DNA from: Steroidobacteraceae bacterium
Lineage (GTDB): Bacteria; Pseudomonadota; Gammaproteobacteria; Steroidobacterales; Steroidobacteraceae
Reading direction: 5' to 3'
Length of the DNA: 64,000 nt
Assembly: GCA_041395625.1 (NCBI GenBank)
Contig: JAWLAE010000006.1
Span: 31,706 to 95,705, forward strand
In this document: one piece after another, positions 56,822 through 64,000 of the stretch
Layout of the letters: each line of letters opens with the position of its first letter
Position numbering within the stretch: position 1 is the stretch's first letter
Translations under genes and position numbers: made by a program
Notes under the pieces: model-generated
Told to the model about the DNA's origin: nothing
The model's input: the letters and a program-made list of their open reading frames with translations, nothing else
The model's database searches: none

Positions 56822-58285
56822 ATGCGTATTCTCGAAGAAGCATTGACCTTCGACGATGTCCTATTAGTCCCAGCTTACTCGGAGGTGCTGCCACGCGAGG
56901 TCGACCTCGCGACGCGCCTCACGCGCGGCATCACCCTCAACCTGCCGGTCGTGTCGGCCGCCATGGATACGGTGACCGAGGCACGCCTCGCCATCACCAT
57001 CGCGCAGGAAGGCGGCATTGGCATCGTGCACAAGAGCCTGACGATCGAAGGTCAGGCCCGCGAAGTGGCGCGCGTCAAGAAGTTCGAGAGCGGGGTGATC
57101 AAGGACCCGATCACCGTGCCGCCCGAGACGACGATCCGCCAAGTGCTCGATCTCACCAAGGCGCGTGGTATCTCCGGTGTGCCGGTCGTGCAGGGCAGGC
57201 AGGTGGTCGGCATCGTCACGCATCGCGATCTGCGTTTCGAGGAACAACTCGACGCCCCGGTGTCGACGGTGATGACACCGAAAGAGCGCTTGATCACCGT
57301 GCTCGAGAATGCCCCCAAAGAAGAAGTCCTGCTGCTGCTGCACAAACACCGCATCGAGAAGGTGTTAGTGATCAGAGGCGACATGGAGTTGATGGGCATG
57401 ATCACCGTCAAGGATTTCCAGAAAGCGAAGGAATTTCCGCGTGCCTGCAAAGACCCCTCTGGCCGGCTGCGCGTCGGTGCGGCCGTCGGCACGACGCCTG
57501 ATACCCTCGACCGGGTTGCCGCGCTGCGCGACGCGGGAGTCGATGTCGTGGTGGTCGATACCGCCCATGGTCATTCCCGCGGCGTGCTCGAAACGGTGGC
57601 GCGCATCAAGGCCAGGTACTCGGATCTGCAGGTGATCGGCGGCAATATCGCGACCGCCGAGGCGGCGCGCGATCTCGTCAAGGCCGGCGCCGATGCCGTC
57701 AAGGTGGGTATTGGTCCGGGTTCGATCTGCACCACCCGCATCGTCGCCGGTGTCGGCGTGCCGCAGATCTCCGCCGTTGCCAATGTGGCGGAAGCTATCC
57801 GCGATGAGATTCCGGTGATCGCCGACGGCGGTATACGTTTCTCGGGCGATCTGGCCAAAGCCATCGTCGCCGGTGCCAACGCCGTCATGATCGGCAGCAT
57901 GTTCGCCGGCACCGAGGAGTCGCCGGGCAAGGTCGAGCTGTATCAGGGTGCGTCGTACAAGGCCTATCGCGGAATGGGCTCGTTGGGCGCCATGGGCGAG
58001 CGGCATGGTTCGGCCGATCGTTACTTCCAGGACGCTGCCACCGAACTCGAGAAACTGGTGCCGGAAGGCGTCGAAGGGCGCGTGCCCTATAAAGGCAGTC
58101 TGGTGTCCATCCTGCATCAGCTGGCCGGCGGCTTGCGCGCCGCGATGGGCTACACCGGCAGCAACAGCATCGAGCAGATGCGCAAGCGGCCGCAGTTCGT
58201 TCGCGTGACGAGCGCTGGCATGCGCGAAAGCCACGTCCACGATGTGGCGATCACCAAGGAAGCGCCTAACTACCGCGTCTCATGA
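56822..58285 (+). CDS. guaB: IMP dehydrogenase
   Basis: [20 protein letters not shown], a CBS pair, [11 protein letters not shown] (catalytic Cys loop) and GGIRFSGD. Confidence 0.97.
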
Positions 58286-59871
58286 GTGGTGTGCCGCAAG
58301 CAGACATACACGCCGACCGGATCCTGATACTCGATTTCGGCGCGCAGTACACGCAGTTGATCGCCCGGCGCGTGCGTGAGAGCGGCGTCTACTGCGAGAT
58401 CCACCCCTGGGACATCAGTGACGCAGACGTGCGGGCATTCAAGCCACGCGGCATCGTCCTGTCCGGCGGACCCGAGTCCGTCAACGCCGCCGCGCCGCCG
58501 CGGGCGCCCGAATTGGTGTTTGCGCTGGGCGTGCCCGTGCTCGGCATCTGCTATGGCATGCAAACCATGGCGCAGCAATTGGGTGGTCAGGTGGAGGCGG
58601 CCGAGCACCGCGAGTTCGGCTACGCCGAGGTATCGCTGCAGGGTGCCTGCCGGTTGTTCGACGGCCTGGCCGATCGTCGCGACGCGGCAGGCCGTGCCGT
58701 GCTCGACGTGTGGATGAGTCATGGCGACCGCGTCGCGCAGTTGCCGCAAGGTTTCATTGCCGTCGGTGCCAGCAGCAATGCGCCCCTCGCAGCGATCGCC
58801 GACGAAGCGCGTCGTTTCTACGCCGTGCAGTTCCATCCCGAAGTGACGCACACGCTGCAGGGCGCGCGCCTGCTCGAGCGCTTCGTGCGCGAGATCTGCG
58901 GTTGTGCGGCCCTCTGGAGTGTCGGCAACATCATCGACGACGCGATCGCGCGGGTGCGGGCTCAAGTTGGCACCGGGCGCGTGTTGTTAGGTTTGTCGGG
59001 CGGCGTCGATTCGTCGGTGGTCGCGGCGCTCCTGCATCGGGCCATCGGTGATCAGTTGGTCTGCGTGTTCGTCGATCACGGGCTGTTGCGCCTGGGCGAG
59101 GGCGATCAGGTGATGCGGACCTTCGCCGACAACCTCGGCGTGCGAGTGATTCGGGTCGATGCCGAACAGCGCTGCCTGGCTGCGCTCGGCGGCGTGGCCG
59201 ACCCCGAGCAGAAGCGCAAGATCATCGGCAAACTTTTCATCGAGGTGTTCGACGAGGAGTCCGGCAAGCTGCAGGGGATCGACTACCTCGCGCAGGGCAC
59301 CATCTACCCCGATGTCATCGAGTCTGCCGGCAGCAAGACCGGCAAAGCGCATGTCATCAAGTCGCATCACAACGTCGGTGGGCTGCCGGCCAACATGCGC
59401 ATGCAGTTGGTCGAGCCGCTACGCGAGTTGTTCAAGGACGAGGTGCGCAAGCTCGGCGTCGAGCTCGGACTACCGCGCGAGATGGTTTATCGGCATCCGT
59501 TTCCGGGCCCCGGACTCGGGGTGCGGATCCTGGGTGAAGTACGCAAAGAGTTCGCCGATCTGCTGCGCCGTGCCGACGCGATATTCATCGAGGAGCTGCG
59601 CCGCCACGAGCTCTACGACAAGACCAGCCAGGCTTTCGCCGTGTTCCTGCCCGTGCGCTCGGTCGGCGTGATGGGCGATGGTCGACGATACGATTACGTG
59701 GTCGCGTTGCGCGCGGTGGAGACCATCGACTTCATGACAGCCCACTGGGCGCGCTTGCCGTACGATTTCCTCGATCTCGTCTCACGCCGGATCGTCAACG
59801 AGATCGATGGCGTGTCGCGCGTGGTATATGACGTGTCGGGCAAGCCGCCAGCGACGATTGAGTGGGAGTGA
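58282..59871 (+). CDS. guaA: GMP synthase (glutamine-hydrolysing)
   Basis: The GATase domain has [20 protein letters not shown] and GICYGMQ. The ATP-PPase has [11 protein letters not shown]. The C-terminal dimerisation domain ends KPPATIEWE. Confidence 0.97.
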
Positions 59872-59880
59872 TTAGGGGTG

Positions 59881-59908
59881 TTTCGCGGTCTATCGGCACC
59901 CCGCGAAA
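59881..59908 (+). terminator. hairpin downstream of guaA (tttcgcgg-N12-ccgcgaaa), possible terminator and/or part of the att region
   Basis: An 8-bp perfect inverted repeat 10 nt after the guaA stop with no clear U-tract, so the terminator assignment is weak. Confidence 0.3.
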
Positions 59909-59986
59909 TCAGAGCCTAACTCACTGAATAAAAACAAATAAGCTCTCCGAACCTTTCGCCATCTATCGGCCTCAAGCGGGACACTC

Positions 59987-60158
59987 TGACGGTAAAACTG
60001 ACGGTATGGGTTTCCTGCACCCCAAGAGACCCCGATTGTTACCGTCATAAAGTCGACGGTAATGCAGACAAGAAAACTGTGGAATTGCAGGGGAAAAATA
60101 GCAGAAACCCCTGATTTCCGCGGTGAGGATTGAGGGAATTGGGCTTCTGACGGTAAAA
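59987..60158. repeat. five copies of a GACGGTA(A) motif (four direct, one inverted) upstream of int; candidate integrase arm-type sites
   Basis: tgacggtaaaac (59987), tgacggtatggg (59999), ttaccgtcat (60039, inverted), cgacggtaatg (60054) and tgacggtaaaatt (60148), all read directly from the sequence. Confidence 0.5.
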
Positions 60159-60187
60159 TTGGGGCCGCGCCAGAACGGGGGCCCGCC

Positions 60188-61444
60188 ATGCTTACCGACA
60201 TCGCCCTGAAGAAGCTCAAGCCCCGGGAAAAGCCGTACAAAGTGACGGACCGGGATGGGATGTACGTGACGGTCTCGCCGGCCGGGACGATCACGTTCCG
60301 GTTCGACTACCGGATCAGCAACAGGCGCGAGACCCTCACCCTGGGGCGCTACGGCCCGGCGGGGCTATCCCTGTCCGCCGCCCGCGAGAAGTGCATCGCT
60401 GCCCGGAACACGCTCGCCCAGGGGCACTCACCGGCCCGGGTGAAGCAGCGGGAGAAGCGCCAGCTGGCAGCCGCCGAGACCCTGGGCCAGTTCGCCACGA
60501 AGTGGCTGGACGAGGGCCCGATGGCGGAGAGCACCCGCACCATGCGCAAGGGCATCTACCGGCGAGAGGTCGAACCCGAACTCTCGAACCGCCTTCTGCC
60601 GGAGGTGTCGTCGGACGACGTGCGCATCCTGTGCCTCAAGATCAAGAACCGGGGGTCGCCCGCGACGGCCATCCACGTCCGGGACATCGTGAAGGGCATC
60701 TACAACTTCGCGAACCTGCACGGGCACAAGGTCCCGAACCCGGCCAACGAGGTGGCGCCGACATCCATTGCCACGTTCAAGCCGCGCGAACGGGCGCTCA
60801 GCCCCGAGGAGATCCGGATCGCGTTCACGCTGATCGACAAGGTGTCGTTCGCCCATATCCACCGCCTGGCGCTGCGGATGATCCTGCTGACGCTCGTGCG
60901 CAAAAGCGAACTGGCGAAGGCGATGTGGAGCGAGATCGACTTCGACAAGGGCGTCTGGACGATCCCGAAGGAGCGCATGAAGGCACGCCGGCCGCACAGC
61001 GTCTATCTGTCGCGCCAGGCGCTGGAGATCTTCACCGCGCTGAAGCTGATGGCCGGAAGCTCGCCCTACGTATTCCCTTCCCGCTATGACGCCGATGTTC
61101 ACATCGCGGCGAGCACGCTCAACCGGGTCACGTCGCAGATCGCCGAGAAGGCCAAGGCGGAGAATCTGCCGCTGGAGATGTTCACGGTTCACGACCTGCG
61201 CCGCACCGGGTCGACGATCCTCAACGAGATGGGCTTCAACCGCGACTGGATCGAGAAGGCGCTTGCGCACGAGCGCAATGAGTCTTCGCGGGGCACGTAC
61301 AACCGCGCCCAGTACGCCGAGCAGCGGCGGCACATGCTTCAGGAATGGGCGGACATGATCGACGCGTGGGTGGCGGGCAAGACGCACACGCCAGTACTGC
61401 TGCCGTCGTCGATGAAGGTGATCGCAGCGCAGGCGCTAACCTGA
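60188..61444 (+). CDS. int: tyrosine-type site-specific integrase (P4-like, N-terminal arm-binding DUF4102-type domain)
   Basis: MLTDIALKKLKPREKPYKVTDRDGMYVTVSPAGTITFRFDYR matches the P4-integrase N-terminal domain. The catalytic domain carries LTLVRKSEL (Arg), HDLRRTGST (HxxR) and HERNESSRGTYNRAQY (His...Tyr). Confidence 0.9.
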   Translation: MLTDIALKKLKPREKPYKVTDRDGMYVTVSPAGTITFRFDYRISNRRETLTLGRYGPAGLSLSAAREKCIAARNTLAQGHSPARVKQREKRQLAAAETLGQFATKWLDEGPMAESTRTMRKGIYRREVEPELSNRLLPEVSSDDVRILCLKIKNRGSPATAIHVRDIVKGIYNFANLHGHKVPNPANEVAPTSIATFKPRERALSPEEIRIAFTLIDKVSFAHIHRLALRMILLTLVRKSELAKAMWSEIDFDKGVWTIPKERMKARRPHSVYLSRQALEIFTALKLMAGSSPYVFPSRYDADVHIAASTLNRVTSQIAEKAKAENLPLEMFTVHDLRRTGSTILNEMGFNRDWIEKALAHERNESSRGTYNRAQYAEQRRHMLQEWADMIDAWVAGKTHTPVLLPSSMKVIAAQALT

Positions 61445-61449
61445 CTACC

Positions 61450-61833
61450 TCATACGAAATGATTGAAGCTCGGTCGTCGCCCCGAATCCTCGCACCACAC
61501 GACGTGGCCCTTCTTAATCCAGAAGTGCGCGTAAGTTCCTGCGGTTTGGCGAACCGACGGATGCACGGTTGGGCGTCCTAGAATATCGCGTGAGATGGCC
61601 CAGCGCGGACGGTGATTCGCCTGAAGCGACAACTGGATGAGTTCGCGGGCGTCGCTCGGACACAGGAAATACGCCCACTTCTGGAAACCCGGCCCGCCGA
61701 CAACATAAATGATTCCCGGAGCCATATCGGCTTGCAGTGGATGGTCCGCGACGACGCGCATGTAGAAGTCTGGCTTCTCAGCAACGCCAAGCCAAACAAA
61801 AAGCGCCCGAACAGCTGAACGAATCTCATCCAT
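61450..61833 (-). CDS. DUF6527-like small protein, last gene of the Ubl/E2/E1 operon
   Basis: 127 aa from the ATG at 61833, 2 nt after the E1 stop. The core ...KWAYFLCPSDARELIQLSL...RPRWAIS...GRPTVHPSVRQ...YAHFWIKKGHVVW resembles the DUF6527 pattern as I recall it (CxCGCG...W.l...PSI...C.SH.WI..G.v.W), but most of the Cys positions are substituted. Confidence 0.55.
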   Translation of the reverse strand: MDEIRSAVRALFVWLGVAEKPDFYMRVVADHPLQADMAPGIIYVVGGPGFQKWAYFLCPSDARELIQLSLQANHRPRWAISRDILGRPTVHPSVRQTAGTYAHFWIKKGHVVWCEDSGRRPSFNHFV

Positions 61834-61835
61834 CC

Positions 61836-63257
61836 CTAGTCCATCCTGCCTAGGAACGGATCTACGTCTCCGGCACCCCATAGCGCACTGGAACCACAAA
61901 TCTGACAGCTTGCCCTGGACGTGTGCCCTGGTCGCCGGTCCTCTCCGTAGTGGAATTTCCGCACGCGGTTGGCTGAGGCTCCCTCCGGGCCCCTGAAACC
62001 TTGCAGGCGGTGAATCAGCTCATTCACCGCCATGCAGGCGGTCTCCGTTGTGAAGGTCACCACCGCGGGGCTCGGATTGCCTGCGCCGACAACGTACGAC
62101 TCGGATTTCCGACGTTCATATTCCTCAGGATTCTTTCGACGCATTGTCTCGGAGCGGGCTGCTTCCGGATCTATGACATCCCGGCAAAGCAGGCAAGTGT
62201 GGTTCGGACCCAAGACGGTGACGCGCCCATCGAGGGCTCGGATTGTCTGTGACCCCTCCGGCGCAGGCTCTATGGCCAGGCCGATGTCGAAAACAGGAGT
62301 GAGGTAGTAGTACGCGAAGCGGTTCAGAAAGAGTCGTCCCTCATGATCATCTGTGCAGCCGAAGATGACATCAGAGGCTCGAAGTACGTCTCGGCACGCC
62401 GGATCTGCGACCCACGCTTCGATCGGCACAACCCGGGAGCCCAGTCCCAATTCTGTTATCGAGCGCGCTACCACCTCGACCTTCGGGCGCATTGCGTCAG
62501 CGTCCGCTTGGCGGGAGCCGTGAAGCCGATTCAGATTTGTTACATCAACAACATCGTTGTCGATGAGCGAGATTTGGCCAACGCCGAGCCGTGCAAGCAG
62601 CATCGCAACCGCGCTTCCAGTGCCGCCGCATCCCACGATGGCCACGCGTAGCCGACGCAAGTCTTGATTGAGTGCTTGGCCAAACGCCAGAGCCTGCCTA
62701 TGAAAGGCAGGAATGGGGAGTGTGGCGGCGCGGTCAGGGTAGTGCAGGGCTAGACGCTCGCCAGCAACGCGCACCATGCGCAGCGGCGCGGCGCCATTCG
62801 GTAATGGAGTTAGCCAAGTGCGACCTGTGAGGAGACCATCAGCGGTCAGCACAAGGCTGAGCATCTTGGTTCCGACGCCATTGCGGTTTACAGCCAGTTG
62901 TACGAGATCAGGCTCGTTGGCGTCATCCTGCGCTGAGAAGAAGCATTGGCCTGCACCATGGCTATGCACGATTCCTATCTCTTGGCCGTTGGCGTTGGCT
63001 TGCCTCAATGCCGACACGAATGACGCCGTCTGCCATGTGATGAGGTTCGCTGTTCGCTCAATGACATGTTCATCCGGTACAGGGATGATTCGTGAACTAA
63101 GGAACTTGGTGTGCGCTTGGCGATCCCACGGGTCATTGCGAACCACCGCCCGGTTGCAGAGCATGTAGGCGGCATGTTCGCAGCCATCGTCACGAATCAG
63201 GTGAGACTTCAGCTGCTCGAAGTGTTCGTGCTGCAACGTCAAGCTGTAGGTTGTCAT
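61836..63257 (-). CDS. JAB/MPN (JAMM) metalloprotease - E1-like (ThiF/MoeB-family) adenylyltransferase fusion
   Basis: The N-terminal domain has Glu27 (GCEHAAY) and an intact JAMM motif H98-S-H100-x7-S108-x2-D111 (IVHSHGAGQCFFSAQD, nt 62925-62966). The C-terminal domain has the Rossmann nucleotide loop VAIVGCGGTGS, NLNRL, FGCTDD and paired CxxC motifs (C355/C358, C451/C454), as in E1/ThiF enzymes. Confidence 0.85.
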   Translation of the reverse strand: MTTYSLTLQHEHFEQLKSHLIRDDGCEHAAYMLCNRAVVRNDPWDRQAHTKFLSSRIIPVPDEHVIERTANLITWQTASFVSALRQANANGQEIGIVHSHGAGQCFFSAQDDANEPDLVQLAVNRNGVGTKMLSLVLTADGLLTGRTWLTPLPNGAAPLRMVRVAGERLALHYPDRAATLPIPAFHRQALAFGQALNQDLRRLRVAIVGCGGTGSAVAMLLARLGVGQISLIDNDVVDVTNLNRLHGSRQADADAMRPKVEVVARSITELGLGSRVVPIEAWVADPACRDVLRASDVIFGCTDDHEGRLFLNRFAYYYLTPVFDIGLAIEPAPEGSQTIRALDGRVTVLGPNHTCLLCRDVIDPEAARSETMRRKNPEEYERRKSESYVVGAGNPSPAVVTFTTETACMAVNELIHRLQGFRGPEGASANRVRKFHYGEDRRPGHTSRASCQICGSSALWGAGDVDPFLGRMD

Positions 63258-63637
63258 GCGGCAGCCTTCTCAAGGGCTTCTTCGACGCGCTTGATCATTG
63301 TCCAGATGCCGTCTGTTCCGGGGCGCCACTCCGGGTTGTGACGTGACCATCGCTGCCAACGCCGGCCGCCGAATTCCAGTGGCTGGTCAGCCGCTCGGGG
63401 ATATGTGTTGGTGGTAGTCAGCCGTACCCAGGGTTCGAGATAGAACATGTCCGGGGCGATATCGGGATATCCGCCGGGGAGCAGGATCAGGACGTCCGCG
63501 GAAGTGGCGTCAAACCGGCCACATGGCAGCGGCCGGCCCCTGAGGATGATGGCTTTGCTCCCATTCTCCTCAGTGGCTTCGAATGCAATGCCCTTCGAAG
63601 CAAGGTAGTCGCGATCTGCAGGCGGAAGAGTGATCAT
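63254..63637 (-). CDS. E2/UBC-like protein lacking a cysteine at the expected catalytic position
   Basis: 127 aa. The layout is UBC-like: a beta-meander, then LLPGGYPDIAPDMFY (equivalent to the FPxxYPxxPP flap), then a C-terminal W-x-P...helix (EWRPGTDGIWTMIKRVEEAL). The only Cys (C39) is in the N-terminal sheet. The stop overlaps the E1 start (ATGA at 63254-63257). Confidence 0.65.
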   Translation of the reverse strand: MITLPPADRDYLASKGIAFEATEENGSKAIILRGRPLPCGRFDATSADVLILLPGGYPDIAPDMFYLEPWVRLTTTNTYPRAADQPLEFGGRRWQRWSRHNPEWRPGTDGIWTMIKRVEEALEKAAA

Positions 63638-63641
63638 GTGG

Positions 63642-63902
63642 TTACCCTTCAGTCGTCGTCTTCTTCCCCGTGAAGAACCGTTCCGTCCCCTTCTCGGTGA
63701 CATCAATCTGGTCATCGTCTTTCACGAGGCGATCTTCCGGACCGCGGACATCCTGCCATGCGTCGTAGGCAGCACGATCAACTCCGGCAAGCGACTTGAT
63801 CTCAAGGCCGGTGATGGTCGCCTTGGGCCAGTCGTGCGGTTTTTGGTCGACGATGATTTTGTACGTCGTGTGATGGGGCTGCTTCTGCTGTTCGTCACTC
63901 AT
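63642..63902 (-). CDS. small ubiquitin-like (multiubiquitin-family beta-grasp) protein ending in a free C-terminal glycine
   Basis: 86 aa from the ATG at 63902, preceded by AAGGAG at 8-nt spacing. YKIIVDQKPHDWPKATITGLEIKSLAG... resembles the prokaryotic multiubiquitin domain. The C-terminus is ...KKTTTEG followed by the stop. It is the first gene of the operon, 4 nt upstream of the E2-like gene. Confidence 0.65.
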   Translation of the reverse strand: MSDEQQKQPHHTTYKIIVDQKPHDWPKATITGLEIKSLAGVDRAAYDAWQDVRGPEDRLVKDDDQIDVTEKGTERFFTGKKTTTEG

Positions 63903-64000
63903 TCGAGTCACTCCTTGCCGGGTGGATTCAAAGCCGACCGGCGGAACGCCAATCCGCCGATCCGCTAAAAAGCGTATCGCAGGCCGCAGGTAGTTGCAAG

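Follow-up and report, generated by a model that had tools for sequence, protein, structure and literature searches.

A probable Type I Bub operon with separate Ubl and E2 genes, carried by an integrase-bearing element at guaA in a Steroidobacteraceae bacterium

The 6E/DUF6527 operons described by Iyer, Burroughs and Aravind and by Millman et al. have been renamed Bub, for bacterial ubiquitination-like (Ye et al., bioRxiv 10.1101/2024.11.21.623953), and the family has been characterised by Ye, Gong, Chambers and Corbett (Ye et al. Nat Struct Mol Biol 2026; Gong et al. Structure 2025). Its activating enzyme (E1) and conjugating enzyme (E2) function without catalytic cysteines; the ubiquitin-like protein (Ubl) is carried as an oxyester in both cases, Ubl~Tyr at the crossover loop of E1 and Ubl~Ser on E2 (Ye et al., bioRxiv 10.1101/2024.11.21.623953). 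In BubCD, an N-terminal JAB domain cleaves the BubAB fusion behind a conserved Gly, and conjugates are stripped by the DUF6527 protein, BubE, which acts as a serine protease through a Ser-His dyad (Corbett laboratory Bub papers). Type I operons are defined in the same papers by a JAB-E1 fusion, and Type II operons by an E2-E1 fusion without JAB. Here we analysed a four-gene operon at positions 61450-63902 of a 64,000-nucleotide (nt) stretch of Steroidobacteraceae DNA (contig JAWLAE010000006.1; hereafter the window). The locus is very probably a Type I Bub operon (6E.1/DUF6527 in the earlier naming) that belongs to the subtype with separate bubA and bubB genes and is carried as cargo by an integrase-bearing element at the 3' end of guaA. 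The operon is a further example of a known family and not a new system. An initial annotation, made from the sequence alone, had linked the genes to the multiubiquitin-E2-JAB-E1 neighbourhood of Iyer, Burroughs and Aravind, which was right. It had also described the operon as related in logic to Bub; that link holds but understates the case, as the locus is, on our reading, a Type I Bub operon itself.

The four genes are co-directional on the minus strand, and all open reading frames (ORFs) lie at the positions given by the initial annotation:

63645-63902 (feature span 63642..63902), minus strand: bubA, Ubl of 86 amino acids (aa), single beta-grasp, Pfam Multi_ubiq
63257-63637 (feature span 63254..63637), minus strand: bubB, E2 of 127 aa, Pfam Prok-E2_E
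61839-63257 (feature span 61836..63257), minus strand: bubCD, JAB-E1 fusion of 473 aa, Pfam Prok-JAB and ThiF
61453-61833 (feature span 61450..61833), minus strand: bubE, DUF6527 protein of 127 aa, Pfam DUF6527

The junctions that had been annotated as a 4-nt gap, an ATGA overlap and a 2-nt gap were exact on direct reading. The 3' end of bubA reads ACT GAA GGG TAA and is followed by ccac and the ATG of bubB, which is an internal ATG within a longer ORF. The stop codon of bubB and the start codon of bubCD share ATGA (gcATGAca), and the TAG stop codon of bubCD is separated by gg from the ATG of bubE. All four Pfam families scored above their thresholds and far beyond chance (Multi_ubiq, E = 8.7e-21; Prok-E2_E, 1.2e-47; Prok-JAB, 6.5e-09; ThiF, 1.1e-41; DUF6527, 1e-17), confirming domain calls that had been made by eye, and the contig annotation already uses BubE as the name of Pfam family PF20137. 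Neither a tRNA nor an Rfam RNA was found in or beside the operon locus.

BubCD matched the structure of Citrobacter BubCD (PDB 9ea4) over residues 7-423 with an E-value of 2.4e-44. The Citrobacter JAMM residues E28, H91, H93 and D104 map to E27, H98, H100 and D111, the complete set at the locus being E27, H98-S-H100, S108 and D111. In the E1 domain, the adenylation residue R227 maps to R244 and the crossover-loop residue Y370 to Y388; the nucleotide loop is formed by G209-S215. We used 19 related genome loci to compare residue conservation and gene order; the best match in a scan of the genome collection was 78% identical. E27, H98, H100, S108, D111, R244 and Y388 were invariant in these 19 loci. 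Besides a CxxC pair at the loop start, no Cys occurred in BubCD's crossover loop or in that of its counterparts in the 19 loci. BubCD has the architecture that a Type I enzyme requires: a JAB/JAMM domain N-terminal to a single-domain ThiF-like E1, with a loop Tyr and no other loop Cys. A MoeB/ThiF-like CxxC...CxxC motif at C355/C358/C451/C454 forms a putative structural zinc site. The motif is kept in the proteobacterial and cyanobacterial clade and absent from Citrobacter BubCD and the Bacteroidota relatives.

The bubB product matched the sequence of Citrobacter BubB (PDB 9eae_C; E = 5.9e-10), with its DMFY and WSRH segments aligned to the published D299/S333/H335, which correspond to D63, S98 and H100. 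Among 20 BubB sequences, S98 and H100 were invariant and D63 was present in 19, the remaining one (L010) having a gap at this position. The only Cys of the protein, C39, is not conserved, in agreement with the annotated lack of a catalytic Cys. BubB belongs to Prok-E2_E and has the Ser in place of the catalytic Cys, the His at Ser+2 and the upstream Asp that are expected of a Type I E2. Because the published Ser/His/Asp oxyester residues are conserved in the bubB product, the Cys-poor E2 is, on the evidence of its alignment, not a dead enzyme; an E2 that lacks the catalytic Cys is the hallmark of Bub chemistry. Overall, every published catalytic residue was kept in the 19 related loci wherever it could be aligned, with the single gap at E2 D63 as the only break, and the published catalytic residues were also invariant across 102 sequences of BubE and in 144 out of 150 representatives of the family.

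BubA ends in ...KKTTTEG with the stop codon directly after Gly86, and is thereby the single-domain Ubl with a pre-exposed Gly that had been annotated. Its sequence matched the solved bacterial multi-ubiquitin proteins 8u38, 9d5b and 9cd2 (E = 2e-11 to 3e-12). An AlphaFold2 (AF2) model with a confidence (pLDDT) of 82 superposed on these proteins and on Citrobacter BubA (9ea8_B/9d59) with TM scores of 0.70-0.76, so that both sequence and fold point to Ubls of the BubA/BilA type. The sequence matches and the predicted structure together confirmed a ubiquitin-like beta-grasp fold for BubA. The initial assignment of the two small proteins to beta-grasp and UBC-type folds is borne out by the Multi_ubiq and Prok-E2_E matches and by the matches of BubA and BubB to solved structures. 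BubA has the Multi_ubiq beta-grasp with a reactive C-terminal Gly that is required in Type I operons, and single beta-grasp Ubls occur in 40% of Bub operons (Corbett laboratory Bub papers).

According to the main text of the Bub paper, a BubAB fusion released by JAB is common to all Type I operons (Ye et al., bioRxiv 10.1101/2024.11.21.623953), whereas Ubl and E2 are encoded here by separate genes. The fusion is not truly defining for Type I, because Table S1 of the same authors files 31 split operons there. Its 139 Type I operons comprise 106 Ub+E2 fusions, 2 operons without a Ubl and 31 with a separate Ubl and E2, and the split ones include operons of Rhizobium phaseoli, Hyphomicrobium, Mesorhizobium, Bradyrhizobium and Sphingopyxis (Ye et al., bioRxiv 10.1101/2024.11.21.623953). 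In our comparison, 15 of the 19 related genome loci were split, 3 were fused and 1 was cut off at a contig end. Among the best 120 E2 homologue clusters, 117 were standalone proteins of 124-138 aa and 3 were fusions. Standalone Ubl clusters were Gly-terminal in 111 of 120 cases, with tails of 2-9 residues in the other 9. In the alignment, standalone Ubls terminated at ...TTEG, at the point where the fused relatives run on as TTEG|NS..FLPAKDREYL into the E2. Since the same stop at TTEG recurs across more than 100 homologue clusters, the split is, as the alignment indicates, a real, old and conserved form that coincides exactly with the processing site.

The JAMM active site is invariant in all split loci despite a Ubl that is born mature. 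Ye et al. (bioRxiv 10.1101/2024.11.21.623953) suggested that processing is "primarily or solely" the function of the JAMM domain. An invariant JAMM site together with the lack of a pre-protein to cut argues against a processing-only role and for a second one. Judged from this conservation, the JAMM domain of split operons is probably a second deconjugating or editing peptidase.

For BubE, the Citrobacter residues S92 and H102 map to S93 and H103 with the same 10-residue spacing, so that the Ser-His dyad expected of a Type I DUF6527/BubE protein is present. In 102 BubE sequences, S93 and H103 were invariant and C58 and C114 were near-invariant. BubE at the locus contains only two Cys, as the initial description of a Cys-depleted DUF6527 protein implied. 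An AF2 model (pLDDT 87) consisted of an N-terminal amphipathic helix (residues 2-15) and eight strands, in line with the published description. Searching the PDB with the sequence of BubE returned no match, and a Foldseek search of the PDB with the model found no fold relative (best E = 1.2), which agrees with the published statement that this fold has no known relatives. C114, the second near-invariant Cys, is also found in most relatives of the type with four zinc-site Cys (C4). In one close relative (L022:11802-12194; GCA_964268935.1), the interval from bubCD to the integrase has the same length but contains no called bubE, which may reflect a frameshift or a gene overlooked in calling.

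The region upstream of bubA was followed beyond the window on a metagenomic contig (L001), which is 100% identical to window positions 61346-64000 (2655 nt) and extends 1355 nt further. On L001:11-1316, equivalent to window coordinates 64040-65346 past the window end, an alpA-like gene, capH and capP are located directly upstream of bubA and share its strand. The capH product is a 106-aa helix-turn-helix (HTH) protein (PADLOC capH, 2.9e-8; Pfam HTH_3), and the capP product is a 236-aa HExxH metallopeptidase (PADLOC capP, 3.5e-9; Pfam Peptidase_M78). The pair of genes that marks a CapH+CapP-regulated operon, encoding an HTH protein and an ImmA/IrrE-type peptidase immediately upstream, is therefore present, with both genes outside the window. 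The order capH-capP-bubA-bubB-bubCD-bubE was shared by 10 of the 11 closest genome loci. Of all Bub operons, 31% have CapH+CapP (Corbett laboratory Bub papers), and these proteins de-repress adjoining operons upon DNA damage according to the cited literature. Two sequence features lie between capP and bubA:

63952..63999, minus strand: predicted bub promoter/operator, called from a sequence motif and its conservation, with a putative function
63911..63916, minus strand: Shine-Dalgarno sequence AAGGAG of bubA, read in the sequence, 8 nt ahead of the ATG

The promoter has a -35 element TTGCAA (63999-63994) and a -10 element TACGCT (63976-63971). When the capP-bubA spacers of relatives were anchored on the common TACGCT hexamer, a conserved -35 element (TTGCAA, TTGACT and variants) was found 17 nt upstream of it. 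A 16-bp imperfect palindrome, TACGCTTTTTAGCGGA (63976-63961), overlaps the -10 element, and a repeated half-site, GATCGGCGGAT, is also present. The palindrome has the form TACGCT-N4-AGCG(G/T)A, its left half being the -10 element, and the same spacing was seen in 12 related alpha- and gammaproteobacterial loci. Besides the window, it was located at L001:223-242 and in L003-L013 and L022-L028; it recurs at the capH promoter in alpha- and gammaproteobacterial relatives and is perfect there in some genomes (TACGCTGATCAGCGTA). The pattern occurred once in the 64-kb window, as compared with 0 matches in 100 shuffles. The palindrome is a likely CapH operator.

Two further features were observed in this region. 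An inverted repeat, AGCGGATCGGCGGA / TCCGCCGGTCGGCT, lies at 63932-63966 on the minus strand, in the bubA leader downstream of the -10 element, and both a second operator and an RNA hairpin of the 5'-UTR were considered for it. The arms of the leader repeats in relatives are complementary but differ in sequence (e.g. ATCGGCT...AGCCGAT in L005). In the split-type relatives L004, L005, L006, L008, L010, L011, L013 and L028, an extra gene for a DUF2188 protein of about 75 aa (Pfam, 7e-27) is the first behind the promoter, between capP and bubA; L003, L012 and the window lineage are without it. Lau et al. 2022 had earlier linked DUF2188 with CapH/CapP.

On its other side, the operon adjoins an integrase gene and guaA:

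60188..61444, plus strand: P4-type tyrosine integrase, Pfam Arm-DNA-bind_3, Phage_int_M and Phage_integrase
58282..59871, plus strand: guaA (GMP synthase), an intact ORF with the C-terminus ...ATIEWE

The integrase gene is convergent with bubE, with 5 nt between the two stop codons, and begins 316 nt downstream of the guaA stop codon. The 3' end of guaA is likely to be the integration site of the element; integration at this position is documented for other islands and for integrative conjugative elements (ICEs; PMC9376610, PMC7775301), and no tRNA was found near the guaA-integrase junction. The guaA-integrase spacer (59872-60187), the presumed attL, is locally AT-rich (e.g. AATAAAAACAAATAAG), whereas the GC content of the window is about 65%. 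Loci L022-L027, in which E2 is 97% identical and the nucleotide identity to the window about 87-90%, have the same integrase-bub arrangement by guaA. Their order is guaB-guaA, the integrase gene, bubE to capH, alpA, AbiEii/AbiEi and genes of a TrbC/VirB3/VirB4-type type IV secretion system (T4SS), and beyond guaB they fall into two different contexts (xseA or msrA-like). Because AbiE and then TrbC/VirB3/VirB4/T4SS genes lie past alpA in these relatives, their gene content suggests that the island is probably an ICE at the guaA 3' end. BubCD relatives were found on 124 plasmid records, 58 of them conjugative; no BubCD homologue was found in 50,697 phage records. In the 19 more distant loci, no integrase homologue was present within 10 kb, indicating that the integrase link is a property of the island lineage and not of the operon type. 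The mobile or defence context and the guaA island proposed initially are supported by the integrase at guaA, by AbiE and the T4SS genes in relatives and by the plasmid records.

Several points weigh against the Type I Bub assignment and the regulation proposed with it. PADLOC 2.0.0 and NCBIfam have no Bub-family model, and the locus received no automatic defence call from them. The published C4 zinc site of BubE (Citrobacter C57/C59/C61/C99), which is reported to support activity (Corbett laboratory Bub papers), is not kept at the locus: C58 alone remains, with S60, A62 and T100 at the other three positions. The capH and capP genes are codirectional with the bub operon and the putative operator covers the -10 element; the sole mapped CapH site, in a CBASS system, lies upstream of the -35 element of a divergent promoter. 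The Bub mechanism would be carried over to the locus by homology from a Citrobacter system that is 30-40% identical and has a fused BubAB. In the literature we found no biochemistry on any split-type Bub operon and, up to mid-2026, no Bub operon for which phage protection was shown. With regard to the zinc site, the loss of the three Cys is common to the BubE proteins of the close clade, and 150 BubE family representatives included 82 with C4, about 34 with CxCC and about 14 (about 10%) with one Cys or none. Across these sequences the zinc site appears as a variable feature of BubE and is not a defining one. The departures in the zinc site, the CxxC motif and the mature Ubl are clade-level variation within the Bub family.

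In favour of a truly novel variant of Ubl conjugation, whose Cys-less E2 would be an inactive scaffold, one can cite that BubE lacks the C4 zinc site, that PADLOC has no model for the family and that the Bub main text ascribes a BubAB fusion to every Type I operon. We regard such a variant as improbable, because the split form is listed in Table S1 of the same paper (31 operons), the catalytic residues of the oxyester pathway are all invariant, and the proteins directly match the solved BubCD and BubB sequences. For the same reasons, the initial view that the operon is not one of the well-characterised variants did not stand: it matches the solved Citrobacter BubCD and BubB, and its split form has been catalogued. 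The chemistry, which the annotation had called open, has been solved for the family, and the residues are present here.

The Ubl stop codon lies exactly where the fused relatives run on (TTEG|NS...) and the E2 is in another frame, as would be expected if a nonsense mutation or frameshift had split a BubAB fusion and the operon were decaying and non-functional. However, over 100 protein clusters with 60-99% identity share this split, its ...TTEG stop and its separate start codon, as do genomes of alpha- and gammaproteobacteria, cyanobacteria and Bacteroidota; the active sites are all conserved, and the coupling through the 4-nt gap and the ATGA overlap is intact. Decay of a Type I Bub operon is consequently very improbable.

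We give as little credence to activation of a ThiS/MoaD-type sulfur carrier for cofactor or thionucleoside biosynthesis, although the E1 scores against ThiF and MoeB models and keeps CxxC...CxxC, and the small protein is Gly-terminal. The ThiF/MoeB NCBIfam scores were far under the cut-offs, by 3 to 10 times (e.g. 77 versus 275 bits). A rhodanese domain is absent, as are neighbouring thi, moa or sulfurtransferase genes; regulatory or mobile genes surround the operon, and E2, JAMM and BubE genes are always co-encoded. The survey of homologue neighbourhoods that had been recommended returned capH/capP, the integrase, AbiE and plasmids, and no sulfur-carrier biosynthesis context. Finally, it is hardly credible that the locus belongs to a different system of bacterial Ubl conjugation (Bil, Type II CBASS Cap2/Cap3, 6A-MBL or Type II Bub): PADLOC E1-E2 (Cap2-like) models and NCBIfam 6A-MBL cap2_3 do match the E1, but these matches span just about 50-120 residues of the adenylation fold, far under threshold, the E2 is a Prok-E2_E protein with Ser and not Cys, and there is no CD-NTase gene, separate JAB gene, IAD-AAD-CYS E1 or E2-E1 fusion. 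The PADLOC and NCBIfam assignments to Cap2-like and ThiF-like proteins were rejected as partial matches to the adenylation fold only. PADLOC had been proposed as a check on the family, but it has no Bub model and yielded nothing beyond the partial Cap2-like matches.

Under the Type I Bub reading, the residues and promoter elements described above suggest the following course. The HTH repressor CapH and the ImmA/IrrE-type metallopeptidase CapP would hold the operon off via the TACGCT-N4-AGCGGA operator over the -10 element, and DNA damage or single-stranded DNA would activate CapP, leading to cleavage of CapH. BubA would then be produced with Gly86 exposed and, as seen in its sequence, no need of processing. 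The E1 domain of BubCD would adenylate Gly86 with the help of Arg244 and the Gly-rich loop, and Tyr388 of the crossover loop would accept the Ubl as a tyrosine oxyester. From there, the Ubl would pass to Ser98 of BubB as a serine oxyester, assisted by His100 and Asp63, and then to a target lysine. BubE would take the Ubl off conjugates by means of Ser93 and His103. The JAMM domain, which has no pre-protein here and an invariant active site, would probably act as a second deconjugating or editing peptidase.

Although not a new kind of system, the locus is a clear-cut representative of the split-gene subtype, which has received less study. The Bub family is of interest for its ubiquitination-like cascades that run wholly on oxyester and not thioester intermediates. 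As a construct, the operon is convenient: it has a minimal 86-aa processing-free Ubl and its own CapH/CapP switch, and it is located on an integrative element beside AbiE. It is suited to questions about the job of JAMM without a processing substrate, the dispensability of the BubE zinc site and the induction of the pathway by DNA damage. We tentatively propose, at somewhat less than even likelihood, that these features jointly make up a functionally distinct Bub subtype on ICEs and plasmids, in which JAMM has a non-processing job (e.g. editing of off-target or self-conjugates), BubE works without the zinc site and the CapH operator doubles as the -10 element.

Among the known systems, Bil (BilABCD) and Type II CBASS Cap2/Cap3 share with the locus an E1-E2-Ubl/JAB logic and a location in mobile or defence islands, and some are under CapH+CapP or CapW. 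They differ in their use of cysteine thioesters, and further in the tandem IAD-AAD-CYS E1 and separate JAB of Bil and in the conjugation of a CD-NTase by CBASS. The locus has no conserved catalytic Cys in its E1 or E2, no separate JAB gene and no CD-NTase in its neighbourhood. Anti-phage activity has been demonstrated for Bil and CBASS but not for Bub. Type II Bub (E. coli ZDHYS365: BubA, BubBD, BubE) is closer, with a multi-ubiquitin Ubl (9cd2, E = 2e-11), oxyester chemistry and a BubE protease. It differs in its E2-E1 fusion, in the absence of JAB and in having Lys+His, instead of His+Asp, beside the E2 Ser; at the locus, E2 is a separate gene and JAB is located on the E1.

Citrobacter sp. 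RHBSTW-00271 has a Type I Bub operon (BubAB, BubCD, BubE; PDB 9ea4, 9eae, 9eav) with the same four domains in an order identical to that of the locus. The JAB-E1 proteins are homologous over 417 residues, both operons are located on mobile elements, and the JAMM residues, the adenylation Arg, the crossover-loop Tyr, the E2 Asp/Ser/His and the spacing of the BubE Ser and His are shared. In contrast to the fused BubAB of Citrobacter, Ubl and E2 are separate at the locus and the Ubl is Gly-exposed. The Ubl has one beta-grasp here and three, which form filaments, in Citrobacter. The locus E1 has a CxxC...CxxC motif that Citrobacter BubCD lacks, its BubE is without three of the four zinc-site Cys, and its element lies at guaA, whereas that of Citrobacter lies at a tRNA gene. 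The architecture is identical to that of the split Type I operons of Table S1 (Rhizobium phaseoli plasmids, Hyphomicrobium denitrificans, Mesorhizobium, Bradyrhizobium, Sphingopyxis), which often have CapH+CapP upstream. Many of these operons carry DUF2188 between capP and the Ubl gene, in contrast to the window lineage. BubCD of the R. phaseoli plasmid is 67% identical to that of the locus, and the RefSeq annotation of R. phaseoli reads HTH / ImmA-IrrE / DUF2188 / multiubiquitin / E2-UBC / ThiF / DUF6527.

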